Shown here one piece after another: positions 1-60,954 of a stretch of DNA of 60,954 nt. The DNA comes from a virus (taxonomy: Duplodnaviria > Caudoviricetes), in the IMG/VR virus record IMGVR_UViG_3300017776_000012, positions 1 through 60,954 of that record; one strand, written 5' to 3'. The position numbers and the translations under genes were made by a program. Positions within the stretch are counted from its first letter, which is position 1, and each line of letters opens with the position of its first letter. Under the pieces are notes generated by a model, which saw only the letters and a list, made by a program, of their open reading frames with translations, was not told where the DNA came from and made no database searches.

Positions 1-123
1 AGTTTTTTTAGTATAAAGGTACTGACGAATATCTGCAGTGCCTTCAAACTGATGTCCTCCAGAAGCATTGCTTCTAACAACAGCTGGAGCCTCGGCAGAT
101 CGGTCTATTTTACTTTTTAATAC
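1..123. repeat. Terminal direct repeat, left copy (circular assembly overlap)
   Basis: 1-123 is identical to 60832-60954 and falls in frame inside the giant CDS. Confidence 0.95.
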
Positions 124-3100
124 AGAAAAGAATTCTCTTAACTCATTACCCATTCCATCAAAGGAAGAGATTCTTGACTTATACTTATTTAATCCTTCAT
201 CTGTAAGCATTCCCATAAATTCAACATTTAAAGTGGTTTCTTCATCCAACATTGATTTATGTAACGAACCCCCCTCGCTAAAGTACCCCTCCTTGTTGAG
301 GGCATCTAATCGGGCTTTGTCAATTAAAGGAGTCTCTAACTCGGATAACTTTACAAGATGATCATAAATAACAGAAGGCTGTTTGACAATAGAAGCTTTA
401 CGAATGTCCTCAACAGGCAGGATACCTGCAGCAACTAAAGTATTAGTGTCTAAAAGTCTTGACCCTTCCGGATCTTCAATAGAAGAAAGCATTTTACGTT
501 CAGTCAGCTTACCCAATGATCCGGCCCAATTGTCATAAGAAGAACCGCTATCGCTCATCATTTCTGCTCTATCTAATTTTAATTTAAGAGGAACAGGTCC
601 AGACATGTTAATAGTATGACCTTGAAGCATTCCAGACCTATAGCTTAAGTCTTGAACATACTCTGAATTAAGTTTCAGTTCTTCAGCCATCTCTTCTAAG
701 ATAGATCCTACTTCTTTCATTTTAGGATCTTCACTTTCTTTCATTGCTTTGATTTCAGATCTAGCTGAATCACCAGCACGCCCTGAGATAAGACTTTTAC
801 CTGCTAATTGCATAACATCGTCTAAGTCTCTCGATCGTTGCTCAGATCCCATAGAGTTTTCACCAAGTATTCTTCCAGATTTTCCTAATCGGCTATCATA
901 CTTTACAGTTCTAAATAAAGCTGCTCTTAACTTATCTCGATGAAAAGCCATTCTTACATTCAAGTCAGCATCTATGTTTTCTCCAATCTGAGAGAAAGTA
1001 GATAACTTGCTGCCATTGAAAGTACTTTCACTTGATAGAGAGTTATTATCGAATAGCTCAGCTATCATTTGAACAAGCATATACTTTGCATCCCCTGAGG
1101 TAAGGCTTACCTTAGAGTTAATAGTAGCCTCTGTATTAGATCCAGCCAGTGCTAGAGAGTCAATACCACCTTTAAGCTTTTGACCAATTGTTAGTTTTTG
1201 AGCCTTGGATACATAATTGCTATTTGTTGCGGCATCATACAACTCTTCCATACTATAAGTTTTTCCGCTAAGATCAGTATAATCTCCCTTTCTCATATAA
1301 GGAAGCACATGCTTTGCTAAGAATGCAATAGCCAGCTTAGGATCATCATCCACTAATTTTTGGAAATCCACTCTACCATTTGTAATTGTTTTTTGAATTC
1401 TTAGTTCAACATTATTACTAATCGCAGAGAGGGGCATAACTTCTGGCCTATCGTACTCACCGGGCTTAAGGCCTTCGCCAATGCTATTCTCTAATTCTAA
1501 AATTGCCTCATCAAGCTCTTTTACCTCTACACTATCCTTTGATTGACCAAATTCATAGATAAGAGCATCTCGTTCTTTTTTATACGCTTGAATTTGAGCC
1601 AACTTGCTTCCTGTACCCGTATTAAATTGAATGCTACCCTTACGATCCCCTAGATCGCGTAATGGCATTTCGGCCTTACCTAGAAGAACATCAGTCATGC
1701 TGTCTATTTGATTTCTATAGGAAGGATCTAAATCTAAAAATACTTTTCTAATATGCAAAATTTTAGCATATGAGAAGTTAATCATCTTCTGAAGGATGTT
1801 CTTAATAGCAGAACCAGAACCCGATACAGCTTTATCAGCATCTCTATACGCTGCTTCCATTGTTACTCGGTCTTTAAAGGTTCTTGCTTGCATATTATAA
1901 GAGAACAAAGCAGCAACAAACTCATCAGGATTCTCTAAGTAAAACTCAATCTGCCTTTTAGTCTTTCCATCTAATACGCCATTATTCATGGCTAAGACTA
2001 AACGCTTTACAAGCTCGGGAGCTTCTGGGTTATTAAGCATACTATTGGTCATATGCCATTCTGGAGATCCGTGATCATAAAGTCTAGCTTGAGCAGCATG
2101 AGCAATCTCATGAAGAATAACATCAACAGCTGTTAATTCTCTACCCAACCTACCTTTAAGAAGATGCAATGAAATGCCTGTCTTAGACGTATTGATAAAT
2201 CCAGCAGGGCTCCGTCCACCAAAGTTAGGTGCATCCAAACCTTGCTCTTTTGCGAGTTCAATGGCTTTTTGTTTAATGTTACTTGTTTCAAAGAAATCTA
2301 AGTTTTCAAGAAGATTCCCATCCATCTGAGCAAGAACAGCTCTAAGCATTTTAAGTTCTCTAACTGTAAGAGTACCGCTCTGCACTAAGGTTTCTAATTG
2401 CTTATCAATAGCCTCATGAGCTTCACTAGGCTGACCATTCTTATCTTTAATATGATTTCTAAAATTAGTCTTATTCATAAAGTACTCAGCATCACCCGGA
2501 GTACCATCTTCTTTATCGGGATACTCTCCCTTGTACAGCGGCCTATCGGTTTTAATGCCTGTATTAACATCTTGTTCGCTTCTAAGCATGATCTGCCTAG
2601 CAATCTGGACACCCTCATCAATTCTTTTCTTATGATCCTTTTGACGAGGAGTTCCGCCATCCTTGATGTTACCGGGCTCTCGGGCAGCCCGTAGCTCAGG
2701 AGATCCCGGCCTTCCCGGCTCATAATTTAACCATGCTTCATATAATTTTTGATAATCTACATTAGATAATTCTTCACCGTTTAAAATCTTAGTCTGCAGA
2801 TCAGGATCCTCTTGAAGCATCCTCAGTGCAACTGGAGCGTACCCTTGACGAGTTACACCATCACTAACAGCGATATCAATACCATGCTGCAGAATCTTTT
2901 GACTTGCTACGATTTCTTGAGCTGCTGCAAGAACTTTGTCAGTCGCCTTAATGCCATAAGCCGAAGCATATTCAGGATTGTTTAAAATCCTCATGTTAAT
3001 AAACTTAGGATTAATAAAGACAAGGCCTGCTAATCTTTTAGCATCTTTAATCTCAGCATCTGAAAGACCTCCAATCTCTTGAAGCTTCTCTATACTATTA

Positions 3101-6100
3101 CGACCAAAAATTTGCTCGCCTTCTCGGATTTCAGCCTCTTTGGCAACTATAGCTTTTCTAATTCTCTTAAAGTCATCAGCAGTAATATATTGCTTTTTAA
3201 TATCGGCTTTAATAGTTGAGGAGCGACCGCCCAAAATAGCACCTAAAGCTAGTGGTTCAATATCATCTAATCCACTAAGCATTTTTATGTCATCTAAACT
3301 CTTGACACCCAATACTTCTCTTAGCTCTTTTAAACCTACATATTCTACAGGCTCTCCGTCTTGCTTAACGCTAATGATGTATGTAGTGTCTTTGCCTTCT
3401 TTAAGGTTTAACCTGTCTTCTCCTGTAGGATCAAACATTTGACGATCTAACGTATTTAATCGCGAAGCGCTGACTTGATAAGGACTGATAAGATTTAAAT
3501 CTTCTACCCCTAATAGATCCTTTGCTGCAATCTCTTTTTGATCTAGGGTGGACATAATAACTCTATCTCTAAAGCTTTCGTCTTCCCACATTTTCTTTAA
3601 GTCTAAGTAGCGTGTCTGATGGAATGAGGATCGAGACACAACTCCGGGTTCTGCGTTTCTCTCTAAGAAGCCTAAGATTAATTGATTTTCATTATCAAGA
3701 TTTGTAGCAAACTCTCTAGTCTCATTTAAATGACTATCCATCTTAGCGTGACGAGCCTGCACTCTCTTTACATTATTATTTGCTAATGCAGAAGTAAAGA
3801 GCATATCGCCCACGTATCTATTAGAAGAAATCTGAAGAACATGTCTAGCCTGATTGGCACTAGCAACCCGTCGAGTCTGATGCCCAATGATCCTGCCTGA
3901 CATGATCTCTAATCCATTCATGGTAAATCTTACATTCTTATCAGCATTTGGAATCTCAAGATCAGAATGAACAGCTTCATGTAATCGCATGGCTTGATCT
4001 GCATTTAAAGTAAGCTCAATTAATCCATCAGTAATTTTAATCTTCTGATCTGGATACAACTCTGACATATGATTTTGTACAACTTTTCTAAGAACGGTAG
4101 CATCCTTAGCGTGAGTAATTGCAACCACAAAAGCCTCATTAGCGTCTAGGTTTTCAATATCAACATATTCACCATTTTCAGCTCTATACCCAACTGCAAA
4201 CCCTTCTTCAGGAGTGGCAAATCCCTTAACATTAAGTAACCCCCCTGCCTCAATGCGTTCACCTTGTTTCTCCTTTTTAGTAGGATCTTTAACAATAACT
4301 CTATTGTCCGAAGTTTTAAGTAAGAGAGCTCCTGTTTCTGGATCTCTGACATAGCCTATATCTTCTCCTCTAGTTGGAGCTGGCGCTGAGAATTGGGATG
4401 ATGTATCTAACTTATTGCCCTGTAAAGAACCTTGTTCGTCTACCAAGCCAACATTAGACCTACGCCGTTCGTCTTCAGATACAGACAATAAGGCTTCTCT
4501 TAGTGTGAGACGATTGCCTTGTTCGTCTCTTACTTTAAAGGTTCTGATATTCTGATAAGGATCGACAGAATTACTGTCATACGGATTATCTGCAGTGGTT
4601 TCAAAGTCCTCAACTCTTTGGTCTACAACCTTTTGCCATTTTTCTTCTAAAGCTGCAATACCTTTTGTTCTTCTAATCTTGGCTTCACTCTGAGTAATCT
4701 TGCTATCTTTAACTAGTCCGTCAAGAATTTGATCAAACTTCTTAACTTCCTCGTTAAACTTAATAACATTATTAACCCAAACCTGATGACCATAGATTAA
4801 ATCCCATCTTGGTTCTGTTTTATCGACAACTCTTTCAACAGTTCTTTCAATAGTTTTACCAGTAGGAATTTCTTCATCTACGAATTTACCAGTTCCCGCA
4901 CGGCTCTTAGCTCTTTCAGCTAACAGATAATCTAATAGAGGTTCTTTCTTTCCTCTTTTAACTTTAGCAGGAATCGTAATACCTAAGGCTTCTGCCATTT
5001 CAGTTAATTTAGTTTTAGTATATTTTCTATTACCTAAATAAGTTTCTTTAGGAAGATCTAATGTTTCTGCTTTTTCAAGATTGTTTCTTGCATCCTCTTG
5101 AGGAACCTCTCTTCGGACAGAAATCATTTCAGGCTCACTGATAGTTTCAGTAACAGTTTGTTCTCCACCTAATAAATCATCTAAGCCATACTTACGGGCA
5201 TGCTTAGTAAGAATACTTTGAACAATAATATCTGTTTGTTCAGGACTAGATTGAACACCGAGTGTTTCACTTCTACTTAGAGCTTCCATACTAATATCAA
5301 CATCAGCTAAGAATTCTTCATCCGTAAACTCAACCCGATTTCTTTCATCAATATCAAAAAGTACTCCATTCTCTTGGAGGTTTGTATCAATAGTAGTTGA
5401 ATCTCTTTCTGCCAAAAGCTTTCTCTGGACAACAGCTTTCTCGCCATCTGTTCCAGTTGCAAGCTCTTGAGTATAGCCCATAGTCTTAACTTGATGAACT
5501 TCCCTGAGTGCAGGAACACCTAATACATTATCAATATGCTGTGTGGGGTGAATAGCTCTAAAGCCAAGGCCACCGCCCATAGTTCTAGGAGTTTGAGGAG
5601 TAAGCTCCATCAATTTATTTTCAGAATTATTTTGTAATTCTCGTTCTCTTAATCTTTGCTCGATCTCAGGATTTTCTAAATCATCTAATTTTAAATTACC
5701 ATCCTCATCGTACTGCGAGCTCCAAGGATTACCAAATCTTTTACGATACTCTGAATCAGTAGTATCAACATCCTGTTCTTTAATTCTGTTAGACGCTGCT
5801 TCAATGTCATCACTTTGAGCTCTCCACTCTCTAAATGCCTGCTCTTTGGTCATAGGAGGAGTCTGAACAAGAGTACCATCCGCTGTTTTCTGCAACGGTG
5901 CATCAAACTCAGGAGAGATTGTAATAAGAGCATTCTTAAGAGCAAGCCTTCTGATCCTAATTTCTTCTAACTTAGTAGCAGCTGCAATGATATCATCTAC
6001 TGAAGCATCTGGAGAAAGAACACGTTGGCCTTTCTTAGCAAGCTGCTGATTAATCTTACGCCACTCTTCTTGAAGTTGGGTTCTATCTTTAGCCAGTTCT

Positions 6101-9100
6101 TTAATGCGATTAGCAATCTGCTCCCGCTTGGTCATATTACCCATATATTTAATATCGTAAATACCTCCAGCAAAAGCTTTACCCTGATCTACATGCTTTG
6201 CATACCAGTCTGAATGAGACAGTGCTCCTTCAGCATCAGGGTTGTTAGCATAAAGCTCTACAAGCTCAAGATCTTCTCTGGCTTCAGCCTTGCTAGTCTT
6301 AAAGGTTGCATCAGATTCTTCTACAAACTGAACGGGATCCAGAATAACTCTTCTACTTTTCTCACCCTTATGGTCCATCTCCTTAGTATGAGGAGCCACA
6401 AACCGGGTACGCCAGTCCATTAAGTTATTGATATAGATAGCATCATCTGTATTCTCTAAAGCTCTTGAAGGACTCATGCCACCAGCATCTTGACCAGTCA
6501 TCTTAAGAATATGCTTAACACTGGGGTCATCTCTAGCTACAGTAAATGCAGTTCTATTTAAAGCCTGTGTTGTACGATCAAAGAAGGTAAACTTAGATCC
6601 CGTAATAAGACTTTCAAGCTCTTTAATCTTAGGACCATCTTTACTTTCTCTTGCTTTCTGTAATTCATCAATAACAGTAAGCTCTTGCATAAACCTAAGA
6701 CGAGCGATATCCATTGCATCGTCCATAGTTTCGGGGCTTTTGGCTTTCTGTAATTTTTCGCCTACACCCGGAATAGTGCCAACTAGATCAAACTCTTTTT
6801 TACGGAGCATAGATGTTGCAAAAGCTTCAATTTGTAAAGCTCTAAAAATCACATCTACTTCTTTTGCCATAGTAGCTTTATTTTTATTGGCTAGCTTGGC
6901 AAGCTTAGTAGCGTGATCCAGCATAACCTTAATGCCATCAGGGGAATTCCACTCCAGCTTATCATCCAAGATTGCTTTAGGAAGTAAACTATTTCTTAAA
7001 CCATCAGGATCTAAAACAGCTTTCATTCTTCCTGCAGAATCTGGAATACCAGTAGCCTTTTCAACTAATCCCATTAAGGCTCTATCTTTACCGCCAAGCA
7101 TAGCAGTAGTTAATTCTTCAACAACTTGATCGTAGGTAACACCTTCTTTTTTAGCCTGAGCTAACATTGCATTTTTGTACATTGCATTATCAGGATCATC
7201 AAAGAAAGATCTAATTGAGTTTTTAACTGCTTTTCTCTTAGCGTTATAAGGAACAATCATTAAGGGCTTTTTAGCAAAGCTTCGTCCAGCTTTACTCCCT
7301 CTTACCCAGAATGGACGCTCAGTATCAGCATTATTCATTGCATATAAAGCTCGGCGTACACCTATGCTCATGCTGCTATCTCCTGCCTTATCGGGCAGCT
7401 CTGCACCAATCTCATAAGTTAAGTTCTGATAAAAGTCGATATCAGTTGAACCATCTGCTTCCACTAGATCCTTAACTAATTGTAATGCTCCTTCAGCAAC
7501 TTCAGGCTTATCAGAATTTAAAGCTTCAAATAATTGGACTCTTCGTCGGAAAGCGATACTTTCGGCAACACCGTGCTTAGAGCCATTGGTAGATCCATCA
7601 GCCTGTGCAATAAGTCGAGAGCCTTTACCCTTAGAACCCTTAGCTGCCTTAGCTACATCGTCTCCTCTTTCAAAGGCTCTTAAGATCTCAGGAGTCATTT
7701 CGGGATACAACCAAGCAGACGCATCTAAGATTGCATGGGCAATGCTATAGTTATTGTCTGGGTCTGCAAGAGGGATAGCAACAGGGAACCCACCGCTAGG
7801 ATCTGCTTCAGCCCAAGGGTTATCTCTGCCTTCTTCAATGTCATACCTGAAGTATGCTCTTGTGTTGATATCTTCCATGCGAATGCCAAACTGTCCGGGC
7901 AAGGCTTTAAGATCATCATGAATAAAGCTATAATGAGTTGGAGGTAAATCCAACATTTGTTCTACAGTTCGATCAAGGTAAAACTCAATACTCTCTACTC
8001 TATCTAAATCTGTTCTTAGTGGAGGAGGAATCTGATCAGCATGGATAGTTAAGGAAGCTCTATCTTGGGCTGTAGACATATTTTGAGTGAGATTACCATC
8101 TTGAATAAACTTAATAACGTCCTCTTCAGAAGGACCCTTAGGATCATCAAAGTCTAGTTCATTGATTCTACGGACTTTATCCTCATAGATAATCTGATCT
8201 AAAATCTTAGCAATTTGCTTATCAGTTCCGGGTTGAACCGCAGAGAAATCTTTTACTTCTTCACTATTTTTAAACTTAATGACATTAAAAGAATTAGTGT
8301 CTTCATCAAGCTCAATAACCTCAGTATTGTATCGCTTACTGCCATCTACATTATCTCTAAACAAAGAGCGAAGGGCAGCTGCCATTGTATCTGGAGTTTG
8401 GAAATCTAACTCACCATTGCCAAAGATTGCAAGTGCTTTAACGCCTTTTGCTTTTAACTCTGGGCTTATTGGCAGATAGGGAATTACTTCAGCTTCAATA
8501 TACTCAATTGCATTCTTAGTATTTAATAAAGAGCTTCTTGAGAGGTTATCTCCCTTACGGCTACTGAGAGTAATTAAACTTTCTACAAGTTTATTGACAT
8601 AATCTTCTTCATTTGCAGCACCTCTAACTTCAGTACCAGCTTTATTCTTAGCTTCCTGAGCTTCTTGTTTTCTTAACTCAGTCAATAACTGAGATTGCTC
8701 AAGACGTACTTGTTGCGGAGTCTTGCTTGCAGCTGTAGCAGCAGAACTTTGCTCTATTGCCATGTCACGTTGCAGTCCAGCTCTTTTGGCTCTTAACTTG
8801 TCTAATGCTTCCACTTCTTTATTTAGAAGATCTTTAACAGTTTCAAGAGTTTCGCCTTCTTGTAAAGGTTCTTTACCAGAAGCTCTTTTAGTTAAAGATT
8901 CTATTCTATCTTTAGATTTAGCAACACTAGCATTAATTATGGTATACCTTGCAGTGTACTCCTCATTCAGATCTTCTGCTAACTGACGAGTTTTCACATA
9001 TTGAATACCTAAGTCTCTTCTTCGTTCTAAGATCTGAAGAACTTGTTCTAAATTAAAAGTATCAAATTCTCTAGTCGTTCCTTGAGATGCTAACGCTTGT

Positions 9101-12100
9101 CCAAAGACAGCATCAATATCAATGTCAGCTAAAACACTTATGTTGTCATCAATGGCAGATTTAAACAAGGACATGACAGCAGCTCTTGTGCCAGTGCCTT
9201 CATTACCTAAAGATGCATGTTTAGTTTCAGACATCATAACATTCTTAAGTTTTAAGATGGCAGACTCAAGAGCTTGAATATCTTCGTTAATATCATAATC
9301 TAATCTGCTAGCAGCTGCTCTTGCATTTCTAGTTTCAAGGTCTGCTTTAGCATCTGATCTAACTCTAGGTGCTACAAATCTAGACGGATCTCCCATCTTA
9401 ACGTTATCAAGCATTGCTAAAAGAACAGTATTCGCTTGCTTAGCCTGACTCTTCCCTAATTCAAAATCTGCTTCAACGCTTGCTGTATCGTATAAAGTTC
9501 TACGACCAGAAATTGAATTCTGAATATCACGATCATTAACATTTCTTTCGTTAATAACGTCTTGTGCCTCTAAGAGAAGTTGACGCATATTAGCTTCATC
9601 TAATGTCTTTAACTGTAAAAGAGGGTGACTGCTAGGAAGGTATCTTCTAAACAGCTGTCTAGCAAGAGCCTGTGAAACCGTACCATTTGATTTTTCATAG
9701 GCATCTAAGATAGCTTTATTGGTTAAAACTTCAATACTATATTTATCGTAGTTTTTATTAAGCTCTACTTCACGTTGCTCTTCAATGATTCCGCTTTGAT
9801 CTCTAAAGCCAGCACTTGTAGGAATGTCTCCCTGATTATCAGGATCGATGTTTAAATCGCCTGCTTCATTCTGGGCAGCTAACTTTCTAAGTTTTTCTAA
9901 TCGTTCTTTTAAGTATTTGGTTTTCTGATCAGTAATATCTTTTGATTTTCCCCTTTTAGTTTTTCTCTTCTCAGCATTACCAAACTTAGTTTCAACATCA
10001 CTTAACTCTTCTTGGAACTCAATTAAAGTATCTAAAATTTCTCTAGTATCTTTATCCTTTGAATCGACTAATTTCAAGAGCTGCTTAAAAGCTTTTTCTT
10101 TTTTCTTAGGATCAGAGCTCTTAAGATCTTTAACAAGCTTTCTTCTTGCTCCTCTTTTATTTTTACCTATTCTATTGATAACCTTAGGATCAAAAGAAAT
10201 GCCATTAGCTTCTGCAAATGCTTTAATATCAGCAAAGCTGCTTTTAGCTGTAGCAGTTTGTTTCTCAATGCCCACATTCTTTGCCGCAATAAGTTCTTCT
10301 AAACGAGATCTTTGTTCGGCAGTTAAAGGAACTTTACGATTAAGCTCTAACTCTTTAATTGTTTCAGCTGTAAACTTAAAGTTTAAAGCTGCTTCAAAGT
10401 TATTAAGAATGAGCTGAAGCCGTCTTTTTCCTTCAGGAGTCTTTGTTAATTCTTCAGCCGTATTACCTACAGTTAAAAAATCAATCATTCTATTTTTAAT
10501 TCCACCAATAACAGCCTCATCTTCATCAAGCTTAAGTGTAATCTCTGATACTTCTGCATCTACGCCTTCTTGCCTCGTAATTGCTTCAGCAATTCTAGCT
10601 TCAATCAACTCTTGTACTTTAGCACGTCTTTCCTCAGGATCTGGATACGACTTAATGATAGTTTGAAGCTCTGCGTCAACTCCCAATGCTTCTTCTTCTG
10701 CAGCTAAAAGACCGTATTGCTTTTCTTTAAATCTTTTAATATCTTCGTCAGAGTAGAAAGTACCGTCTTTACCCCTCACTTTACTTTGAAACTCTGGGTC
10801 ATCTATAAGCATAGCTCTAAGTCCTTGAGGACCAAGCCCTGAGAAAGTTCCATCTTTTATAGAACTTGCATACTTCTTTTCAATTGATTCTACAGCTCTC
10901 CCTAGGGCCTCTTCCATATCCCCCTCATAGATGGTATTATTCATACCTTCTGTAAATCCAAACCTACTTCTAAGTTCATCTACAGTTGTAACTTGACCAT
11001 CAGTTAAGAGTGATACCATGACATTTGCTCTGGCTCTTTGTCTGGCTCCGCTAAGAAGCAGTTTTGTTCCAACATCTTCTCCTTTAAGCCATCCCATGAA
11101 TCCAACGTTTGATGCCTCATCGAAGTTGTTGTTGGCCTCTGGAGTATCTCCATATACTCTAGCCCAAAGTTCTTTTTGATTTTTAAGTTTATCTGCTGCT
11201 TTAATTCCTTTATTTCCAAATAGCGACTGCAAGTAAAACTCTTTAATCTCTACGTCTTTATTCCCCTTAATGTATTTTTCAACACCAAGGCTAACGCTAG
11301 AACCCATTCCCTTAAATGCAGCACCTAATCCCAAAGAAGCAACAGCACTGGTAAGCGTAGCTGCTGCCCAGTTATCCATAAAGTTAATATCTTCACCTTC
11401 ATTATAAAGGGTAGATAGGATAGATTTTCTTTCTGAATTGCTATAGGCATTTGCAAGGAGTCCTCCAGCAGCTCCATCGATACCCTGAGCACCAGACCAC
11501 ACTAAAGCTTTAGTGGCTCGACTCCAAGTAGTCTGGGTCTCCATTAAAACTTCAGCTAGATTGCCAGTCATGCTTAAGGATCCCGGCCTGACTTTTAACA
11601 AGAGTTCTGTAGCTCTTCCTAAACCTTTGAATTTTTTTGGATCAAGCTTTTCAAGTTGCTTAATCTTTGCTAACTTCTCTTTAACCTTTCTTGACTTATT
11701 AGCAATCTTTCCTGCACGCCGAGCCCACTTAGCGGTAAATACACTCCAGTAAGCTGTAGTTGCTGTAGCACCGATTGGAGCAGCTGCACCTGCTGTAGCT
11801 GTTGTACCTAAGATAGACCCACCTGTTACAATAGCACCTCCTAGTAACTCAATTCCCATTTCTGGAGCCATATCAGGATCTTGGACCAGCATATCTTTAA
11901 TGCTAGTAAGCATGCCTATTTCTGTGTTCCGACTTAACTGCATTTGCTCTAAGACCAACTGATGCTCATAAAGGCGTCTAGATACAGCTTCCATTCCTTT
12001 AACAAAAGCACCTGACTGGCTTTCAGAGAACATCAATGAGTTTTCTTTTGTAACTCCAGCTTGATCTAGCATTTGTTTTAAAACAGGATCTGTTGTTAAA

Positions 12101-12858
12101 GTTCCCCAAAGCCAATCATGGGTATATTCTCCGTCTACAGGAGCGTTTGAGTCTGAGGCAATAATATCTCTTGCATCTTGAACTCTTAACTTTGCTCTTC
12201 CAGTAACATCTGTAGTAGGGTCAAGACCTTTTAAACCCTCGATAAATTGAACACCATACGGATCCGCACCATAAGTAGTATCTAAATCTGCTCTAAGTGA
12301 TTCAAGTTTAGCCTGAGTCTCTTTGCTCATAGCACTCGATAAAAGACCAAGACCAATCAGAGCTTGAGCATCATTAACATTAGCTCTAATATTATCAACA
12401 GCGCCAAAAGCACCTGTTCTAGCTCCTAGCTCCTGTACGCCTGCAGCCTTAAAAGTTGCACCGCCTGTTTGGATGTCCATTGAGATATCGCGTAAACGTT
12501 CTTCTCTTTGCGCTTCTGATTTTTTAAAGGTTGCTTCAGTTAAGCCTTGGTATCCCGGACCAGTAACGTCTGTAATATCCTGTCGGATGCCGCTGTATTC
12601 CAAGCTGCTCGGCAATCCGCTATCTCTTAAAATTTCTTTAAACTCTTGACGCTCTTCTTCCTCTTTAATAAGACTTTCTCTAACAGCATTTTCTTGAGCA
12701 GCAATTGGAGAAAAGGATGATCGATAATACTCTGAAAGAATATTGTCTGCTTCTTGTTGGGCCTCTGTTGGCTGCTCTGCAGGCTCTTGAGTAGGCTCTT
12801 GAATAAAGGGATTATTGAAATTTCTAAGGACATTAATTGGACGATCTTGGTCTACCAT
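1..12858 (-). CDS. Giant internal virion/ejection protein (gp16 slot) with embedded single-subunit RNA polymerase and zincin domains; 5' part of a ~4,983 aa ORF continuing at 60831-58738
   Basis: ATG at 12858 with GAGGA RBS. No stop in the large stretches translated by hand, and the track shows no long minus ORF here, as expected for a frame running off the edge. Motifs: QADGSTNGSKH (A), RSFAKKPLMIVPY (B), LEWNSPDG, HAKDATVLR...KITDG (C candidate), HEIAH...EFVA. Confidence 0.88.
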   Translation of the reverse strand, partial: MVDQDRPINVLRNFNNPFIQEPTQEPAEQPTEAQQEADNILSEYYRSSFSPIAAQENAVRESLIKEEEERQEFKEILRDSGLPSSLEYSGIRQDITDVTGPGYQGLTEATFKKSEAQREERLRDISMDIQTGGATFKAAGVQELGARTGAFGAVDNIRANVNDAQALIGLGLLSSAMSKETQAKLESLRADLDTTYGADPYGVQFIEGLKGLDPTTDVTGRAKLRVQDARDIIASDSNAPVDGEYTHDWLWGTLTTDPVLKQMLDQAGVTKENSLMFSESQSGAFVKGMEAVSRRLYEHQLVLEQMQLSRNTEIGMLTSIKDMLVQDPDMAPEMGIELLGGAIVTGGSILGTTATAGAAAPIGATATTAYWSVFTAKWARRAGKIANKSRKVKEKLAKIKQLEKLDPKKFKGLGRATELLLKVRPGSLSMTGNLAEVLMETQTTWSRATKALVWSGAQGIDGAAGGLLANAYSNSERKSILSTLYNEGEDINFMDNWAAATLTSAVASLGLGAAFKGMGSSVSLGVEKYIKGNKDVEIKEFYLQSLFGNKGIKAADKLKNQKELWARVYGDTPEANNNFDEASNVGFMGWLKGEDVGTKLLLSGARQRARANVMVSLLTDGQVTTVDELRSRFGFTEGMNNTIYEGDMEEALGRAVESIEKKYASSIKDGTFSGLGPQGLRAMLIDDPEFQSKVRGKDGTFYSDEDIKRFKEKQYGLLAAEEEALGVDAELQTIIKSYPDPEERRAKVQELIEARIAEAITRQEGVDAEVSEITLKLDEDEAVIGGIKNRMIDFLTVGNTAEELTKTPEGKRRLQLILNNFEAALNFKFTAETIKELELNRKVPLTAEQRSRLEELIAAKNVGIEKQTATAKSSFADIKAFAEANGISFDPKVINRIGKNKRGARRKLVKDLKSSDPKKKEKAFKQLLKLVDSKDKDTREILDTLIEFQEELSDVETKFGNAEKRKTKRGKSKDITDQKTKYLKERLEKLRKLAAQNEAGDLNIDPDNQGDIPTSAGFRDQSGIIEEQREVELNKNYDKYSIEVLTNKAILDAYEKSNGTVSQALARQLFRRYLPSSHPLLQLKTLDEANMRQLLLEAQDVINERNVNDRDIQNSISGRRTLYDTASVEADFELGKSQAKQANTVLLAMLDNVKMGDPSRFVAPRVRSDAKADLETRNARAAASRLDYDINEDIQALESAILKLKNVMMSETKHASLGNEGTGTRAAVMSLFKSAIDDNISVLADIDIDAVFGQALASQGTTREFDTFNLEQVLQILERRRDLGIQYVKTRQLAEDLNEEYTARYTIINASVAKSKDRIESLTKRASGKEPLQEGETLETVKDLLNKEVEALDKLRAKRAGLQRDMAIEQSSAATAASKTPQQVRLEQSQLLTELRKQEAQEAKNKAGTEVRGAANEEDYVNKLVESLITLSSRKGDNLSRSSLLNTKNAIEYIEAEVIPYLPISPELKAKGVKALAIFGNGELDFQTPDTMAAALRSLFRDNVDGSKRYNTEVIELDEDTNSFNVIKFKNSEEVKDFSAVQPGTDKQIAKILDQIIYEDKVRRINELDFDDPKGPSEEDVIKFIQDGNLTQNMSTAQDRASLTIHADQIPPPLRTDLDRVESIEFYLDRTVEQMLDLPPTHYSFIHDDLKALPGQFGIRMEDINTRAYFRYDIEEGRDNPWAEADPSGGFPVAIPLADPDNNYSIAHAILDASAWLYPEMTPEILRAFERGDDVAKAAKGSKGKGSRLIAQADGSTNGSKHGVAESIAFRRRVQLFEALNSDKPEVAEGALQLVKDLVEADGSTDIDFYQNLTYEIGAELPDKAGDSSMSIGVRRALYAMNNADTERPFWVRGSKAGRSFAKKPLMIVPYNAKRKAVKNSIRSFFDDPDNAMYKNAMLAQAKKEGVTYDQVVEELTTAMLGGKDRALMGLVEKATGIPDSAGRMKAVLDPDGLRNSLLPKAILDDKLEWNSPDGIKVMLDHATKLAKLANKNKATMAKEVDVIFRALQIEAFATSMLRKKEFDLVGTIPGVGEKLQKAKSPETMDDAMDIARLRFMQELTVIDELQKARESKDGPKIKELESLITGSKFTFFDRTTQALNRTAFTVARDDPSVKHILKMTGQDAGGMSPSRALENTDDAIYINNLMDWRTRFVAPHTKEMDHKGEKSRRVILDPVQFVEESDATFKTSKAEAREDLELVELYANNPDAEGALSHSDWYAKHVDQGKAFAGGIYDIKYMGNMTKREQIANRIKELAKDRTQLQEEWRKINQQLAKKGQRVLSPDASVDDIIAAATKLEEIRIRRLALKNALITISPEFDAPLQKTADGTLVQTPPMTKEQAFREWRAQSDDIEAASNRIKEQDVDTTDSEYRKRFGNPWSSQYDEDGNLKLDDLENPEIEQRLRERELQNNSENKLMELTPQTPRTMGGGLGFRAIHPTQHIDNVLGVPALREVHQVKTMGYTQELATGTDGEKAVVQRKLLAERDSTTIDTNLQENGVLFDIDERNRVEFTDEEFLADVDISMEALSRSETLGVQSSPEQTDIIVQSILTKHARKYGLDDLLGGEQTVTETISEPEMISVRREVPQEDARNNLEKAETLDLPKETYLGNRKYTKTKLTEMAEALGITIPAKVKRGKKEPLLDYLLAERAKSRAGTGKFVDEEIPTGKTIERTVERVVDKTEPRWDLIYGHQVWVNNVIKFNEEVKKFDQILDGLVKDSKITQSEAKIRRTKGIAALEEKWQKVVDQRVEDFETTADNPYDSNSVDPYQNIRTFKVRDEQGNRLTLREALLSVSEDERRRSNVGLVDEQGSLQGNKLDTSSQFSAPAPTRGEDIGYVRDPETGALLLKTSDNRVIVKDPTKKEKQGERIEAGGLLNVKGFATPEEGFAVGYRAENGEYVDIENLDANEAFVVAITHAKDATVLRKVVQNHMSELYPDQKIKITDGLIELTLNADQAMRLHEAVHSDLEIPNADKNVRFTMNGLEIMSGRIIGHQTRRVASANQARHVLQISSNRYVGDMLFTSALANNNVKRVQARHAKMDSHLNETREFATNLDNENQLILGFLERNAEPGVVSRSSFHQTRYLDLKKMWEDESFRDRVIMSTLDQKEIAAKDLLGVEDLNLISPYQVSASRLNTLDRQMFDPTGEDRLNLKEGKDTTYIISVKQDGEPVEYVGLKELREVLGVKSLDDIKMLSGLDDIEPLALGAILGGRSSTIKADIKKQYITADDFKRIRKAIVAKEAEIREGEQIFGRNSIEKLQEIGGLSDAEIKDAKRLAGLVFINPKFINMRILNNPEYASAYGIKATDKVLAAAQEIVASQKILQHGIDIAVSDGVTRQGYAPVALRMLQEDPDLQTKILNGEELSNVDYQKLYEAWLNYEPGRPGSPELRAAREPGNIKDGGTPRQKDHKKRIDEGVQIARQIMLRSEQDVNTGIKTDRPLYKGEYPDKEDGTPGDAEYFMNKTNFRNHIKDKNGQPSEAHEAIDKQLETLVQSGTLTVRELKMLRAVLAQMDGNLLENLDFFETSNIKQKAIELAKEQGLDAPNFGGRSPAGFINTSKTGISLHLLKGRLGRELTAVDVILHEIAHAAQARLYDHGSPEWHMTNSMLNNPEAPELVKRLVLAMNNGVLDGKTKRQIEFYLENPDEFVAALFSYNMQARTFKDRVTMEAAYRDADKAVSGSGSAIKNILQKMINFSYAKILHIRKVFLDLDPSYRNQIDSMTDVLLGKAEMPLRDLGDRKGSIQFNTGTGSKLAQIQAYKKERDALIYEFGQSKDSVEVKELDEAILELENSIGEGLKPGEYDRPEVMPLSAISNNVELRIQKTITNGRVDFQKLVDDDPKLAIAFLAKHVLPYMRKGDYTDLSGKTYSMEELYDAATNSNYVSKAQKLTIGQKLKGGIDSLALAGSNTEATINSKVSLTSGDAKYMLVQMIAELFDNNSLSSESTFNGSKLSTFSQIGENIDADLNVRMAFHRDKLRAALFRTVKYDSRLGKSGRILGENSMGSEQRSRDLDDVMQLAGKSLISGRAGDSARSEIKAMKESEDPKMKEVGSILEEMAEELKLNSEYVQDLSYRSGMLQGHTINMSGPVPLKLKLDRAEMMSDSGSSYDNWAGSLGKLTERKMLSSIEDPEGSRLLDTNTLVAAGILPVEDIRKASIVKQPSVIYDHLVKLSELETPLIDKARLDALNKEGYFSEGGSLHKSMLDEETTLNVEFMGMLTDEGLNKYKSRISSFDGMGNELREFFSVLKSKIDRSAEAPAVVRSNASGGHQFEGTADIRQYLYTKKT

Positions 12859-52868: not shown

Positions 52869-52892
52869 AATTTTACAATCCTTTCGAATTTG

Positions 52893-52904: not shown

Positions 52905-52916
52905 GGCAATACAACG

Positions 52917-52953: not shown

Positions 52954-52963
52954 CCGTCGTTAG

Positions 52964-53011: not shown

Positions 53012-53021
53012 GTGACTCTCC

Positions 53022-53726
53022 TTAGATTGCGAGTTCTTCACTTGCAGCCTTGACATTTTCCTCTTGAGGTTCAAGCATTTGCTCTTCCTCACTTGGAATG
53101 TTCATGTCAATCTTGAATGAGGGATCAAAGGGATTGATTGCATTCTGCCGACAGTAGGCAAGGTGCTCTTGGAAATTCTCAGACCAGCAGGCCTTGCGAG
53201 GAGCACCTTTGATCCCACGACTGGCAATTGTTTTTTCGTGTCCCTTTAGAATTCGATTTTGATCTGTGGTTCGCTGAGCTTCTGGCAATGCCTTGATCTC
53301 TGCGAGTCCTTCAAGACTGAACCAAGTTGTCAATCCACGGGACCAATTAACTGGTTTCTTTTCCATTTGCATGGTATCAGGATTGAGCTCTTGTCCGCCA
53401 TCTACGAACTGGTAGATGGTTCTTGTTGTTCCAGTCTCCAAGGTTTCGTTAAGAATGACAGGGAATCCATCCTCATTCAATTGAACTTCAGGGATGATTC
53501 CAGCAATGTATGATCGTCCTTTGTCATGCTTATCCCACTTGAGGGTCATGATGTCTCCACGCTGAGGAGCCTGAAGGCCTTGGTTTTGAGGACTGCTCAT
53601 CCAGAGGGCTGTGATTCGCTTGAAAGAATAGTATCGATCAAAAGCATTGGCATGATCTTCGCTAAGGGTTTCACGGTATGTTTTTTGAGCGTTCTTGTAG
53701 TTTGCAATTTGAGGAATCTCGTTCAT
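53022..53726 (-). CDS. Hypothetical early protein with acidic tail
   Basis: 234 aa, GGAG RBS, bracketed by a hairpin element and a terminator. Confidence 0.75.
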   Translation of the reverse strand: MNEIPQIANYKNAQKTYRETLSEDHANAFDRYYSFKRITALWMSSPQNQGLQAPQRGDIMTLKWDKHDKGRSYIAGIIPEVQLNEDGFPVILNETLETGTTRTIYQFVDGGQELNPDTMQMEKKPVNWSRGLTTWFSLEGLAEIKALPEAQRTTDQNRILKGHEKTIASRGIKGAPRKACWSENFQEHLAYCRQNAINPFDPSFKIDMNIPSEEEQMLEPQEENVKAASEELAI

Positions 53727-53792
53727 TGTAATTCTCCATTAGAATTGATAAAAGCAGGTCAGACACACAACGTGTCCAACCACATGGATGCA

Positions 53793-53806
53793 CGCCCGCA
53801 AGGGCG
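53793..53806 (-). promoter_or_regulatory. Candidate hairpin promoter (CGCCC-GCAA-GGGCG on the template strand), copy 2
   Basis: Identical 14-mer at 54820; 67 nt upstream of an early ATG; no U tract. Confidence 0.55.
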
Positions 53807-53930
53807 TATCCGTAGTCTCGGAAGATGTCAAACGTGCAACCAGTGCTCGTCGTAAAGGTCAGTCGTAGTAGTAGTCGCTAGTCTCGCGTAAGCGTAAGCC
53901 ACTATCACGCTGTCGTGCCTAGTGCAGGGC

Positions 53931-53957
53931 AAAAAAAGAAAGCCCCCGAAGGGGCTT
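53931..53957 (-). terminator. Intrinsic terminator
   Basis: AAGCCCC-TTCG-GGGGCTT followed by TCTTTTTTT. Confidence 0.9.
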
Positions 53958-53960
53958 AAT

Positions 53961-54050
53961 TTATTTCGCTGCTTTCTTTCGAGCCTGAGCCTTCTTGATT
54001 ACAGCCTTCAATGGATTACTTAATAACACTTTAAACTGATTGTGAGTCAT
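53961..54050 (-). CDS. Small basic peptide (not in ORF track)
   Basis: MTHNQFKVLLSNPLKAVIKKAQARKKAAK; AAGGAG RBS; ATGA coupling. Confidence 0.5.
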   Translation of the reverse strand: MTHNQFKVLLSNPLKAVIKKAQARKKAAK

Positions 54051-54403
54051 ACTAACTCTCCTTTTTCATACATTGTGATCAGCTTTTGAGCATGGTTCCC
54101 GATCTTGAGATTGTTGTCGTACTCCTGCCGAGCTTGTCTTCGGATCTCTTGCTCTTCTGGAGTAGGATCCTCATGCACATCGCATGAGATACGATCCTGC
54201 ACCACGTCATTAATCCAATCTATTTGGACAAGAGTAGCATCATCCAATCTCTTGTTCAAGTTCTTCCATTGTCTAGCCTCTCGCTCATCGTGACGAGTTC
54301 GAGTAGAGATGCCGGTCTTGCTTCGCTGATTTCTTCGGATATGCCGAGCATGCTCCAGTTCTCGCTTTGCAATAGTCTTTGTCATGTAAGTATGATTACG
54401 CAT
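54047..54403 (-). CDS. Hypothetical early protein
   Basis: Start MRNHTY with AAGGAG RBS. Confidence 0.65.
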   Translation of the reverse strand: MRNHTYMTKTIAKRELEHARHIRRNQRSKTGISTRTRHDEREARQWKNLNKRLDDATLVQIDWINDVVQDRISCDVHEDPTPEEQEIRRQARQEYDNNLKIGNHAQKLITMYEKGELV

Positions 54404-54425
54404 TGTAAATCTCCTTGATTGAATA

Positions 54426-54749
54426 TTAACCGTTGTAAGTACCAAACTCATTCTCGTACTCTCCGATGAGCACAAGTCTTCTTGAGCAGTCTTCTTCTCT
54501 CTCAATCATCTTGCGAAGATCCCGCTCAGCTTCCTTAAATTCAGCCTTCATAAAGCATTTGAAACAGAGGCCATCAGCATCACAGTGTGTACCCTCTGGA
54601 GCTACGTCCTCAGACGAACCACACCAAGCACACAGCCCGTTCTCGTGACGGTACTCCAAGAGCTGATCCTCAGTCATGTAGCCAGTATTGACCACATCCT
54701 TAGGAACAGGACGGAAGAAGGCAAGAAACAGTTCAAATAGTTTACGCAT
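54426..54749 (-). CDS. First early gene, CxxC...CxxC zinc-binding protein
   Basis: CAWC...CFKC; AAGGAG RBS. Confidence 0.7.
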   Translation of the reverse strand: MRKLFELFLAFFRPVPKDVVNTGYMTEDQLLEYRHENGLCAWCGSSEDVAPEGTHCDADGLCFKCFMKAEFKEAERDLRKMIEREEDCSRRLVLIGEYENEFGTYNG

Positions 54750-54819
54750 GGTAGTATCTCCTTGACATGCATTAACAGACAGGATGTGTTACACTCTGCA
54801 ACACAATCATAAAAGGGCC

Positions 54820-54833
54820 CGCCCGCAAGGGCG
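54820..54833 (-). promoter_or_regulatory. Candidate hairpin promoter (CGCCC-GCAA-GGGCG), copy 1
   Basis: 71 nt upstream of the first early ATG; preceded by AAAA on the template strand. Confidence 0.5.
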
Positions 54834-54941
54834 GCCTGTGACGCACAAATTTCGGGGGGTGATGGGGGTCCAAATAATTACCATACTGCAGGGGGACCCC
54901 TCTTGAATACGCGACCCCATTTTAGGATGGGGCCCTAGGAC

Positions 54942-55205
54942 CTACTTCTTCTTAGGTCTGCCCCCAGATCCCTGTCTCGCCCTGTTCTTTGCCGGGCTCT
55001 CAAGCCTCATAGAGCCGTTCTTGGTGTGACTTAGGTCTTTGCCACCCTTGCCCATGATGCCTCTCCTGCGCCGCTCACGGGCCAGTGTGGCCCTATACTT
55101 CTTTCTAGCAGGAGATTTATGATATTCTGTATCATATTGAGCCTTTTTGGCCCTAGATTTTGGGTTCTTGGCGTAAAACGCTGCACTCTTGCTCTTCTTA
55201 GCCAT
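54942..55205 (-). CDS. Small basic HNH-like protein
   Basis: GKDLSH...ESPAKNRARQG pattern; last late gene. Confidence 0.55.
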   Translation of the reverse strand: MAKKSKSAAFYAKNPKSRAKKAQYDTEYHKSPARKKYRATLARERRRRGIMGKGGKDLSHTKNGSMRLESPAKNRARQGSGGRPKKK

Positions 55206-56070
55206 AATATTCTGTCAAATTATTTAAATATGCTGTTAATTCATCGCCAGACATGGCATCGATCTGCTCTTGGTCCATTAAATCAAAGCCCATACCTGTA
55301 TTGCCACCTAACTCGGCAAGATCGCTCTCTTCCATGAAGTCTCCAGCGTAATCTTCACCGTATTTCATACCAGATACTTTCTTAAAGGACTCTTCATACT
55401 GATCATAGGCAGCCTGAGCCTCGGCACTCGACTCGCCGTACTGGTCCCTCATGGCCTGTACCTGACTCGCCGCTGCGGTCAACTCGGGAGCAAACTCAGC
55501 TTGAGCTGCGTCGTAATCCTCAGAGAACTGCAACTCAGTAAACTGACGATCTTGATCCTTTAGCTTTTCAACCATTTGATTGTATTGGTCCTCACTACCG
55601 AATTGTTTCATGTTATCTAACATGCCTCGGAAATCTTCGTCGGAGTACCTATACTCGCCTGTATTCTCGCCCCTGTCTAGACGTAAATCAGCATTCTCAA
55701 TCATTCGATCAAATTGAGTCATTGCTCTATTAGCGTTATAGTCCTCTCCAAAGCCTTTCTTATAGCCTTTGGTTGAATGACCAGTGACATTACCAAATTG
55801 ATCCTTGGTTTCAACAAACATAGCCTTATTCTTAGCATCGAGTACATCAGTTCTTTGGCCTTCTAAACCTTGATACTGAGCTAATGCCTCATCATATGAA
55901 GTCTGTGCTCCACCCATACCCTCTTGTAACCCTTGCAATTGAGTCAAAGATTCAATATAATTAAGATAATCTTGCTTAGCGGTATCACTAAGACCGCTAT
56001 AGGTATCTTTAAAGCTTGTAGTCTTCTTGCCTTCTTTTCTAGCCTTTGTTCTGCTTCCACTGCTTGACAT
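55198..56070 (-). CDS. Hypothetical helical protein (late region)
   Basis: 290 aa, AAGGA RBS. Confidence 0.7.
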   Translation of the reverse strand: MSSSGSRTKARKEGKKTTSFKDTYSGLSDTAKQDYLNYIESLTQLQGLQEGMGGAQTSYDEALAQYQGLEGQRTDVLDAKNKAMFVETKDQFGNVTGHSTKGYKKGFGEDYNANRAMTQFDRMIENADLRLDRGENTGEYRYSDEDFRGMLDNMKQFGSEDQYNQMVEKLKDQDRQFTELQFSEDYDAAQAEFAPELTAAASQVQAMRDQYGESSAEAQAAYDQYEESFKKVSGMKYGEDYAGDFMEESDLAELGGNTGMGFDLMDQEQIDAMSGDELTAYLNNLTEYYG

Positions 56071-58737: not shown

Positions 58738-60831
58738 TTAGTTACTCCTAAATTTATCTACGTTTTGTTGCATACGATCAATTATCTGTTGCCGCATTTC
58801 ATTGGCTTTTGCTCGATTGTGCTTTCTAACTTGCTCTCGATCTAAGAACATCATATTTCTTTGATTATCATATTTCATCTGTTCTCGCAACGTACGCGGT
58901 TTAGTACGATCTCGGTAGATTCTTGAAAACATTGAAGAAAGAATTGGAAGAGTTTCATAGAAAGAGTCAGTAGTCGATCGGCTATACGGTGAGTCACCGC
59001 CTATAGCGGTTTCACCTAAGAAATCAACACCAGTTCCAATGAGGTTAAAGGTTTTATCAAAGACTCCTTCAGCTGGGCTTCCAAAAGGATCAAAAGGAAT
59101 TAAGTCATTTGTGTAATAAGGCTGCTTACGCCCCAAAACATCTTCATTAATAAAACGACTTTTTTGAGCTTGCTGTGCTAGATATCCTAAAACTGCCGTT
59201 CCATACTTACCCCCAAATATAGGCATTCGCATCGCTTTTTTAGCTGCAAAGAAACCGTAATCATTCTTAGCCTCGTGTATAACTTGCTCTGAGCTCTTAC
59301 CTCTAGCCATTTCCATAAGTGTTGTATAAACGGTATCCCAAACTAGGTGACTGAAATAGATTCCCGCTAATCTACCGATGCCTTTACTAGCCAGTCTTGA
59401 TGCCCCTATGAAAGTTTTTTGCTCATAGAAAGCTCTGACCCAAGACATGTAAATGTTTTGGAATGCATTGAATCCGGTATTGTTTAATAGCGGTCTATCA
59501 AAAATACGGGGTTCCACATTAAAAGCATCTACACGCATCACAACAAAGGTGTTCATAGCATTTCTAAATCTGTCCTGTAACGCCGCATCTTTCCGTAAGA
59601 CGCTAGCTTGAGCCTGTAAAGACCTAGAGTCGCTAGCATCCATAGTATGTCCGATTCTAGCCTTTCTGTTTAATTCAGTAGCTCTTTGGCCTTTAAGTCT
59701 AGCTTCTTTAAATGTTCTAGCATAATCAATATATCTAGTTTCTACTGCGTTAGAGTTTTTTATGGTAGCTTCTAAGATAGGTAATAATTCTCTATCCAAT
59801 AAACCGGATTTTTGTAATTCTAAGGCTGTTGAATAGTCAATACCAGCTTTAGTAGTAGCCTGTTTAAATCTCTTCTGAGCTGCTTTTCTATTAGCCCTAT
59901 CTGAAGACATAATGTTATCCATATTAGACTCAGGTAAACCAGTTGTTGACAATGAGTCCTTAATGCTTTCTAACTCTGTAATAAGCTTTTCCAAACGACC
60001 ATCGATGACATACCCAATAATCTTATCATGAGCTTGTAATCCTACTAATTCTTTATTCGCATTAATCATCATTTGAGAAGGTTTTCCGATTAAACCTACA
60101 GCAGCTTTAGCTCCTTTTGCTAAAGAACTTCTATCTCTGCCGCCTAGCTCATGCTCACGGGTGTCAACTTCTAAGTTAATATTAGTCCTACTTATAGCTT
60201 CTGCTCTTAAAGTTTGTAGAACAATTGAAGTTTGTTTTAAGGCTCTTGACCTGTCAATAGGTCGCAATCCTTGAGTAAGACCTTTAGCTATCAGGCTAAA
60301 TGCTGCTACAGGATGTGTGACCATCTTGCGCATTAGGGGAAGAGTACTTTGGCCTGTTTCTTCTAACAAAGCTCCGGGTAAGTTAGCACCATAATAAATA
60401 AATGTCAGAGGATTTAATACAGACAAAGCGGTATCATATGCTGCATCAGATTTATCAAAAGATGAGCGATAGCCTAAAATATTTTCTCTAGCTCTATTAA
60501 AGTATTCTAAACTTTTTCTCAAAGATTCTTTTGTTTCAGGCTCCATAGGAACTTGATCAGTAAAATCACTTAATGCTTTAGTAAGTGTTCTTGTGTTTAA
60601 ATTCTTCACACCTACTTTATTACCTTTATCTCCTATTTCAATACTCTTACCTATTGCAGCAGTAAAGTTTAAGGAATCTGCAGCATCTGCCCCAATACCT
60701 CTTGCCATACCTGAGGATAAAATAACAGGATTATAATCAAGCATTGCTGATAAAGTTTCATCTTCAAAGATATCATTAATTTCAAAATAATCTAAATCTC
60801 CCGGATCAAAACGAACTGAGTTTTTAGCTAC
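58738..60831 (-). CDS. 3' part of the giant gp16-slot protein (continues from position 1)
   Basis: Frame is open from 60831 into the track ORF at 60744 and in phase with 12858->1; C-terminal FQNIYMSW...hydrophobic helix arrangement loosely resembles gp16 C-termini. Confidence 0.85.
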   Translation of the reverse strand, partial: VAKNSVRFDPGDLDYFEINDIFEDETLSAMLDYNPVILSSGMARGIGADAADSLNFTAAIGKSIEIGDKGNKVGVKNLNTRTLTKALSDFTDQVPMEPETKESLRKSLEYFNRARENILGYRSSFDKSDAAYDTALSVLNPLTFIYYGANLPGALLEETGQSTLPLMRKMVTHPVAAFSLIAKGLTQGLRPIDRSRALKQTSIVLQTLRAEAISRTNINLEVDTREHELGGRDRSSLAKGAKAAVGLIGKPSQMMINANKELVGLQAHDKIIGYVIDGRLEKLITELESIKDSLSTTGLPESNMDNIMSSDRANRKAAQKRFKQATTKAGIDYSTALELQKSGLLDRELLPILEATIKNSNAVETRYIDYARTFKEARLKGQRATELNRKARIGHTMDASDSRSLQAQASVLRKDAALQDRFRNAMNTFVVMRVDAFNVEPRIFDRPLLNNTGFNAFQNIYMSWVRAFYEQKTFIGASRLASKGIGRLAGIYFSHLVWDTVYTTLMEMARGKSSEQVIHEAKNDYGFFAAKKAMRMPIFGGKYGTAVLGYLAQQAQKSRFINEDVLGRKQPYYTNDLIPFDPFGSPAEGVFDKTFNLIGTGVDFLGETAIGGDSPYSRSTTDSFYETLPILSSMFSRIYRDRTKPRTLREQMKYDNQRNMMFLDREQVRKHNRAKANEMRQQIIDRMQQNVDKFRSN

Positions 60832-60954
60832 AGTTTTTTTAGTATAAAGGTACTGACGAATATCTGCAGTGCCTTCAAACTGATGTCCTCCAGAAGCATT
60901 GCTTCTAACAACAGCTGGAGCCTCGGCAGATCGGTCTATTTTACTTTTTAATAC
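60832..60954. repeat. Terminal direct repeat, right copy
   Basis: Identical to 1-123. Confidence 0.95.

Follow-up and report, generated by a model that had tools for sequence, protein, structure and literature searches.

Twin hairpins at the early end of a T7-like phage genome as candidate promoters for an ejected polymerase

The virus record IMGVR_UViG_3300017776_000012 of IMG/VR (Duplodnaviria; Caudoviricetes) comprises 60,954 nt, the whole of which was analysed here and is referred to as the window. Two GC-rich hairpins with identical cores, hp1 and hp2, are located where the late genes of this uncultured marine phage end and its early genes begin, ahead of its first two gene units (unit 1 and unit 2). 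The best single explanation, which we put forward tentatively, is that hp1 and hp2 serve as recognition elements in two immediate-early promoters for an ejected polymerase; that they are a promoter of some kind is somewhat more probable. The polymerase would enter the cell along with the leading DNA end and bind a small GC hairpin that is extruded on the template (+) strand and combines a 6-bp core with a GCAA loop closed by G and A. RNA would start at a conserved G located 8 nt past GGGCRKGC (54808 and 53781), and each transcript would open with a protective 5' stem-loop ahead of the ribosome site. The polymerase core would be contained in a giant protein of about 4983 amino acids (aa), which sits where T7-type phages encode ejected core proteins. 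Hairpin extrusion, the strand read and the start sites are what we infer from the arrangement described below. With its tail of four to five U, hp1 may additionally stop late transcripts on concatemers.

The hairpins, the elements behind them and the giant protein

The 14-mer CGCCCGCAAGGGCG (CGCCC-GCAA-GGGCG) is found exactly twice on the + strand (53793-53806 and 54820-54833), in agreement with a preliminary description of this DNA, and the window holds no third copy when up to two mismatches are allowed. The number of copies expected by chance is 0.06 on average and none of 100 shuffles reached two, while the full repeat, GC[A/C]CGCCCGCAAGGGCG, is 17 nt long. The copies precede the ATGs at 54749 and 53726 by 71 and 67 nt, respectively, as had been stated, and their stem extensions do differ (Table 1). 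The credible genes of the 60.8-kb genome are all on the - strand, so that the + strand is the template; both loops therefore read TTGC in mRNA sense and, as described previously, GCAA on the template strand. In mRNA sense hp1 is GGCCGCCC-TTGC-GGGCGGGCC followed by CTTTTATGATTG, and hp2 is GGATACGCCC-TTGC-GGGCGTGCATCC followed by ATGTGGTTGG. Rfam returned one chance-level match only, elsewhere than the hairpins. The exact 14-mer is common in unrelated viral contigs, a scan of viral contigs giving at least 118 stretches, and none of the 14-mer loci fetched encodes a relative of this phage except L082, which had been found by a different search; the bare hairpin is therefore not diagnostic. The same frequency would suit a chance repeat or a recent duplication without function, an explanation that we consider very improbable given the shuffles and given that the core is kept with compensatory changes while its flanks diverge.

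Viral and metagenome contigs were scanned for relatives and filtered by tblastn with the window proteins. The best anchor was a conserved non-coding 21-nt motif upstream of hp1, which led to seven lineages: the window, G002 (L251/L287; variant L266), L276/L311, L264, L292/L303, L252 and G001 (L253/L305). Seven distinct hairpin copies come from the window, G002 (L287), L266 and L276, which form three related sub-lineages. The TTGC loop and the upper four pairs are unchanged in 7/7 copies, while the fifth pair is C:G, T:A or A:T and the sixth C:G or A:T with one mismatch, so that two of the six core pairs have changed on both sides. Among 42 pair cells, 97.6% are paired and, as read from the pair types, none is G.U. 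The observed covariation was reached by 3/500 shuffles and slid registers drop to 24-60% paired. This combination of a constant loop and upper stem with a lower stem that co-varies is the pattern of the N4 vRNAP promoters. As a control, the true terminator 130 nt upstream of hp2 changes its loop from UUCG in the window to GAAA in G002, both being RNA-stable tetraloops on the mRNA strand. The co-occurrence check proposed in the preliminary description was favourable, the hairpins being kept in relatives that have the giant gene.

Behind the hairpins, a G (in GAT or GGT) is positioned exactly 8 nt after GGGCRKGC in all seven copies, despite differing spacer letters. In unit 1 the 8 nt between GGGCGGGC and this G are 54809-54816, and the G is 7 nt past the extended stem of hp1 and about 19 nt from the hairpin centre. 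The second small hairpins that had been announced downstream are present in both units, where they follow immediately. They co-vary, they carry one or two G.U pairs in mRNA sense in 6/6 cases and their antisense fold is weaker by 3.6-5.9 kcal/mol; for these three reasons the second stem-loop is an RNA structure, which must be transcribed. In unit 2 the G.U pairs in mRNA sense number two in the RNAfold structure and three in an 11-pair stem drawn by eye. Since a strong terminator lies upstream and the stem-loop at 53781-53757 is transcribed, the start of unit 2 must lie in 53939-53781, an interval in which the hairpin core is the sole element common to all copies.

The giant open reading frame (ORF) encodes 4983 aa across the record junction and has one terminal stop. 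Its polymerase region has six homologues of 4243-5003 aa among 5.8 billion proteins, none with a Pfam domain, and tblastn of this region against 50,697 phage records gave no match. Four weak, concordant lines of evidence make it likely that a diverged polymerase-like core of T7/N4 type is located near residues 1750-1935. A phrog_414 match (E 1.6e-5) covers giant residues 1808-1980. Alignment with hhalign to RNAP2, one of the T7-like polymerases of the phage itself, reached a probability of 67% (E 5e-5), and weaker alignments to RNAP1 and to N4 mini-vRNAP fell over the same motif A/B segment. Two motifs, DGxxNGxRH (1754-1762) and RxxxKxPxMxxPYxA (1859-1873), are invariant in 7/7 homologues, and we take them to be the A and B motifs of T7-type polymerases. 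In a structure search with model residues 328-453 against 48,161 chains, T7 RNAP ranked first (Z 8.0, 96 aligned) and human mitochondrial RNAP second (Z 7.4). Concomitantly, PF00940 was assigned to 27 of 30 named matches in the ESM-Atlas. The packaging and ejection of the giant protein are deduced solely from the place of its gene among T7-type internal-protein genes. Besides, an HExxH-type motif near residues 3583-3587 is invariant in 7/7 homologues.

Alternative readings and other candidate signals

Modules with a similar layout were observed in a distant relative. In G001, GGCTCC-N4-TGAT occurs ten times, on the coding strand only, between nt 225 and 3648 of 63,334, and the last copy abuts RNAP2; reverse and control patterns gave no occurrence in G001. 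An 11-bp hairpin precedes every copy, with a '7 nt + TGAT' spacing equal to that of hp1, and the modules lie 10-15 nt past stop codons. The early-only distribution, confined to the first 3.65 kb and without copies in the middle and late regions, fits a promoter class. The module (L207 of G001, 225-3648) is composed of the 11-bp hairpin, TCCTKKT, TGAT, a co-varying GGCA-ATGG-TGCC hairpin and a ribosome site, and the ten near-identical copies precede small early genes and RNAP2. In G001, TGATC can pair with GGATCA at the ribosome site.

A number of observations weigh against promoters for an ejected polymerase. The first hairpins of G001 and L264 contain G.U pairs in mRNA sense in 11/13 cases and none in the antisense fold, which favours RNA-level folding there. 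Should the modules and the window pair be homologous, both hairpins of a module may be RNA elements (an attenuator, or a processing site between two stem-loops) with the start upstream; since hp1 and hp2 have no G.U and a fixed loop, they may instead be a different element on the same scaffold. Folding with DNA parameters on the two strands gave -9.4 vs -10.0 kcal/mol for hp1 and -9.7 vs -9.1 kcal/mol for hp2, without preference for the template strand, and such near-equal energies cannot pick the active strand. Located 105 nt past the last late gene, hp1 carries a U4 tail (U5 in G002 and in hp1 of L276) and was called terminator-like by the terminator scan, which did not call hp2. All seven copies descend from recent common ancestors, so that their invariance is only partly independent. 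Contigs of public runs show no starts, ends or variants inside the hairpins, the single RNA run covering 52400-52604 only. Regarding the giant protein, phmmer and profile searches against PDB sequences retrieved no polymerase, and the AlphaFold model, which covers residues 1480-2560, is of low quality (mean pLDDT 45) and usable only around motifs A/B. Finally, N4 has a 3-nt loop, a stem of 5-7 bp and a start 4 nt past the stem, while the window has a 4-nt loop, a 6-bp core with an extension and a spacer of 7-8 nt. The earlier proposal of cognate promoters for the RNAP of the giant protein is partly supported, by position, N4-type conservation pattern, polymerase-like core and layout; the loop (4 nt and not 3) and the G (at 8 nt and not 4) depart from N4, and the strand-neutral energies and the G.U pairs of the distant clade count against it.

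Somewhat less probable than the promoter reading is that the hairpins act in RNA only, as a terminator or attenuator, a 3'-end stabiliser, a processing site or a protein-bound leader hairpin, with transcription starting upstream. The terminator-like score of hp1 and the U4-U5 tails in three lineages agree with such a role, as do the G001 and L264 hairpins, which combine equal spacing with sense-strand G.U, and the position of the G001 modules just past stop codons. The third hairpin of the window (52918-52955) is of the G.U type, with two G.U pairs by eye, and the 21-nt motif could be the actual start signal. Against an RNA-only function speaks hp2, which has no U tract in the window and L276, two of three lineages, and is located 130 nt behind a strong terminator. 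The loop and upper stem of the hairpins stay invariant while the loop of the real terminator changes, and G.U is lacking in 42 cells. Furthermore, ten serial hairpins before G001 RNAP2 would starve RNAP2 if they terminated well, and the G001 elements are unused in the middle and late regions.

Terminators were also inspected directly. Those reported near 40383 and 53931, with GCAA and UUCG on the mRNA strand, proved to be real (Table 1). The third-unit hairpin, on the - strand, has 15 bp, co-varies in G002 and displays the GCCCC..GGGGC base typical of G001 modules.

A palindrome read as duplex DNA is in our opinion improbable, whether as the operator of a dimeric regulator, as a duplex promoter (of a T7-like or host enzyme) or as a hot spot for recombination beside a shuffled early-gene cassette. 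The strict Watson-Crick symmetry of the hairpins and the both-side changes that preserve the palindrome speak for such a site, and the 17-nt direct repeats flank genes A and B. G001, L252, L264 and L292 pass from the end motif to a unit with a ACCTGCTTTTATC-like leader without an A/B unit, and in public run X3 a contig covering 52938-54894 has a depth of 31 vs 3-9 in the flanks. However, a half-site of 5-6 bp with a 4-nt centre is small for an operator, sigma-70 hexamers are lacking, a non-palindromic sequence, ACTAGARACTAG, is a better candidate for a duplex promoter, and the fixed spacing to the G and the 5' stem-loop are left unexplained. Likewise, promoters of the T7 group are non-palindromic duplexes of about 20 bp present before many units, and the hairpins are palindromic and present in two copies.

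No sigma-70-like site scoring at least 10/12 was detected on the - strand in 50000-55000, where the total of sites is below the shuffle mean, and -35/-10 hexamers at 16-18 nt are not seen at the hairpins. TTGAT and TATGAT were considered as sigma-70 hexamers and rejected, having no partner at 16-18 nt and not being conserved in relatives (by eye). ACTAGARACTAG is found in three intergenic regions of the - strand, before gene D (52893-52904), after the RNAP2 terminator (48231-48242) and before the capsid gene (27031-27042), and G002 preserves it together with its flanks. For the T7-like polymerases it is a candidate duplex promoter, and a better one than the hairpins. CACTATCAC has exactly three copies, all intergenic, one of them antisense at 53900-53908.

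The hairpins are the first conserved structured elements after the genome-end-like 21-nt motif. This motif (AAAATGGGGTCGYGTATTCA-) is nearly identical at the nucleotide level across seven lineages, whose proteins share 20-90% identity, is present at about 706-729 of L208 and 12971-12991 of L252, and is single-copy in the window; downstream of it are a purine-rich sequence and a second, CCCCCGGTACCCC-like motif. It may mark a genome end, serve in packaging or act as a promoter. Contigs of two public runs end at 54894, a mere hint at a physical genome end: the contig of X3, 1958 nt long and covering exactly the interval given above, and one contig of run X5. The X3 contig may represent a long terminal repeat or a module that strains have in common, and on its other side it ends within the loop of the third hairpin. 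Nearby, a long-loop stem, GGGGTCC..GGACCCC, joins 54865-54871 to 54894-54900, with compensatory GGGGGCTAC..GTAGCCCCC in G002. In L208, L252, L264 and L292 the end motif leads to a unit with leader ACCTGCTTTTATC, like gene C of the window, and in the window clade hp1 and hp2 enclose one more unit (genes A and B and the terminator), which resembles an inserted cassette (53727-54941).

Genome organization and relatives

The window is the entire virus record. Its first 123 nt are repeated as its last 123 nt, so that the map is circular with 60,831 unique nt. The gene order is T7-like according to PHROG matches (Table 1). The lineage is rare and little explored, and its genome holds three polymerase-type genes. 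In a blastn search of 52000-56000 against the 50,697 phage records nothing matched, and we found no literature on this phage lineage, which is no proof of absence.

RNAP2 misses the usual N-terminal part and keeps the DATCSGM and HDS motifs; the phage records nearest to it are polymerases of Autographiviridae, with 22-24% identity. Two tRNA genes, tRNA-Leu(taa) and tRNA-Arg(tct), lie at 44884-45036 (-), just upstream of RNAP1. Long CCTAGG-rich palindromes occupy two intergenic regions (52414-52508 and 48296-48331), and similar CCTAGG/CCTAAGG palindromes are present in G001 (L207, around 1850-1960) and L264.

Other anchors for relatives were tried and abandoned. The 87-aa protein of the last gene kept 80 loci, with tblastn matches in 47; this gene is promiscuous, since only L002 and L005 share the adjoining genes. 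RNAP2, used as a single protein or as a 3-sequence profile, gave only G002 and G001 as close relatives, the others being generic T7-like polymerases of about 22% identity. A profile of the giant C-terminus added one contig, L322, which is cut about 700 nt past the gene.

Table 1. Positions of the hairpins, associated signals and genes in the window
Feature	Position	Strand	Remarks
hp1	54815..54837	-	6-bp core stem, 14-mer 54820-54833, bulged G and 2 more pairs
T-rich spacer after hp1	54809..54814	-	TTTTAT in mRNA sense
Conserved G of GAT, putative start of unit 1	54808	-	8 nt after GGGCRKGC
Second stem-loop, unit 1	54785..54805	-	RNA-level, G.U in mRNA sense, co-varying
First early gene (gene A), unit 1	54426..54749	-	107 aa; second ORF behind, ending 54047
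Strong intrinsic terminator ending unit 1	53940..53957	-	UUCG loop, U7; GAAA loop in G002
hp2	53786..53811	-	identical 14-mer core 53793-53806, 2-nt bulge and 4 more pairs
Conserved G, putative start of unit 2	53781	-	first base of next stem-loop
Second stem-loop, unit 2	53757..53781	-	then TGCTTTTATC
Gene C, unit 2	53022..53726	-	234 aa
21-nt motif AAAATGGGGTCGCGTATTCAA	54903..54923	-	conserved, non-coding, between last late gene and hp1; kept in 7 lineages
Start of gene order		-	small early genes, then RNAP2, then RNAP1 (PHROG matches)
RNAP2	48633-50558	-	T7-like polymerase, 641 aa (PHROG)
RNAP1	42343-44826	-	full-length T7-like polymerase, 827 aa (phrog_414, E 6e-173)
Terminator	near 40383	-	GCAA loop on mRNA strand, U7
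Replication block after RNAP1		-	SSB, primase-helicase, DNA polymerase, exonuclease (PHROG)
Structural block		-	portal, scaffold, major capsid protein, tail tube A and B, large terminase (PHROG)
End of gene order		-	1415-aa protein, then giant ORF (PHROG)
Giant ORF, N-terminal part	1..12858	-	4286 codons; in frame onward at 60831 down to 58738
Giant ORF, C-terminal part	58738..60954	-	last 123 nt of window repeat first 123
Five genes after giant ORF		-	
Last of the five genes	54942-55205	-	87-aa protein

Comparison with N4, LUZ7 and other known systems

To our knowledge, only N4-like phages are known to use hairpin promoters that an injected polymerase reads. A rare marine T7-like lineage might eject a core protein of about 5000 aa with a built-in, highly diverged single-subunit RNAP that starts at template-strand hairpins whose geometry would be new, the tetraloop being of GNNA type and the start lying 8 nt past GGGCRKGC; we regard this broader proposal as plausible without being probable. 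If true, it would combine an N4-style strategy with two T7-like polymerases in one genome, make polymerase ejection with structure-specific promoters a more general route to host-independent early expression, and supply a new, compact pair of polymerase and promoter to work on.

In the N4 record, promoter P1 reads GTTGC-TTC-GCAAC-TTAT-G and P2 reads GAAGC-TCC-GCTTC-TTTT-G, and both transcripts open with a 5' stem-loop. In mRNA sense, the N4 promoters resemble small terminators, a hairpin followed by a T-run. Like hp1 and hp2, their hairpins are short and GC-rich, and the purine loop on the template strand is closed by G..A; a T-rich spacer follows, and then a G at which RNA starts in N4 and would start here. 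If hp1 and hp2 are promoters, the early ends of both genomes follow the order promoter, gene, terminator, promoter, and a giant protein contains the polymerase domain in N4 and the polymerase-like core here. The 6-bp core agrees with the GC-rich inverted-repeat hairpin of 5-7 bp of N4-type promoters, and a conserved loop and upper stem with free but paired lower bases is found here as well; of the 3-nt loop with its central purine and sheared G:A, only the G..A ends are kept. In contrast to N4, the window has a T7-like backbone, genes on one strand and two extra T7-like polymerase genes, and a sequence match of the giant protein to N4 vRNAP is detected in the motif A/B segment only. Taking the N4 G as +1 fits the template bases -8G, -9C, -10G, -11 purine and -12A given in a review (PMC4496689). 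The same review describes conserved hairpin bases that are required and others that need only pair, a loop closed by sheared G:A, and the template-strand hairpin as the active form (PMC4496689).

In LUZ7, early promoters have a stem of at least 4 bp, a 3-nt loop and a G start 13-14 bp from the hairpin centre; in the middle promoters, which are GC hairpins, the stem reaches 6 bp or more, the loop has 3-4 nt and a G start follows about 15 bp downstream (PMC9163698). The middle promoters resemble hp1 and hp2 in their GC hairpin, stem length, loop size and downstream G, a putative start here, although they serve an early-expressed heterodimeric RNAPII with Drc and not a virion enzyme.

Intrinsic terminators share with hp1 a GC stem-loop followed by 4-5 U; they differ from the pair in that hp2 lacks a U tract and stands behind another terminator, and in that the loop is invariant and G.U is absent. 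The early regions of T4-type phages contain promoter-plus-stem-loop cassettes before small early genes, which may mediate cassette shuffling. These cassettes resemble the ten G001 modules and differ from them by sigma-70-type early promoters, none of which are seen here. Altogether, the window hairpins share the logic of N4 and LUZ7 and not their metrics; if they are promoters of an ejected polymerase, they would represent N4 logic with a changed loop size and spacing on a T7-like genome.

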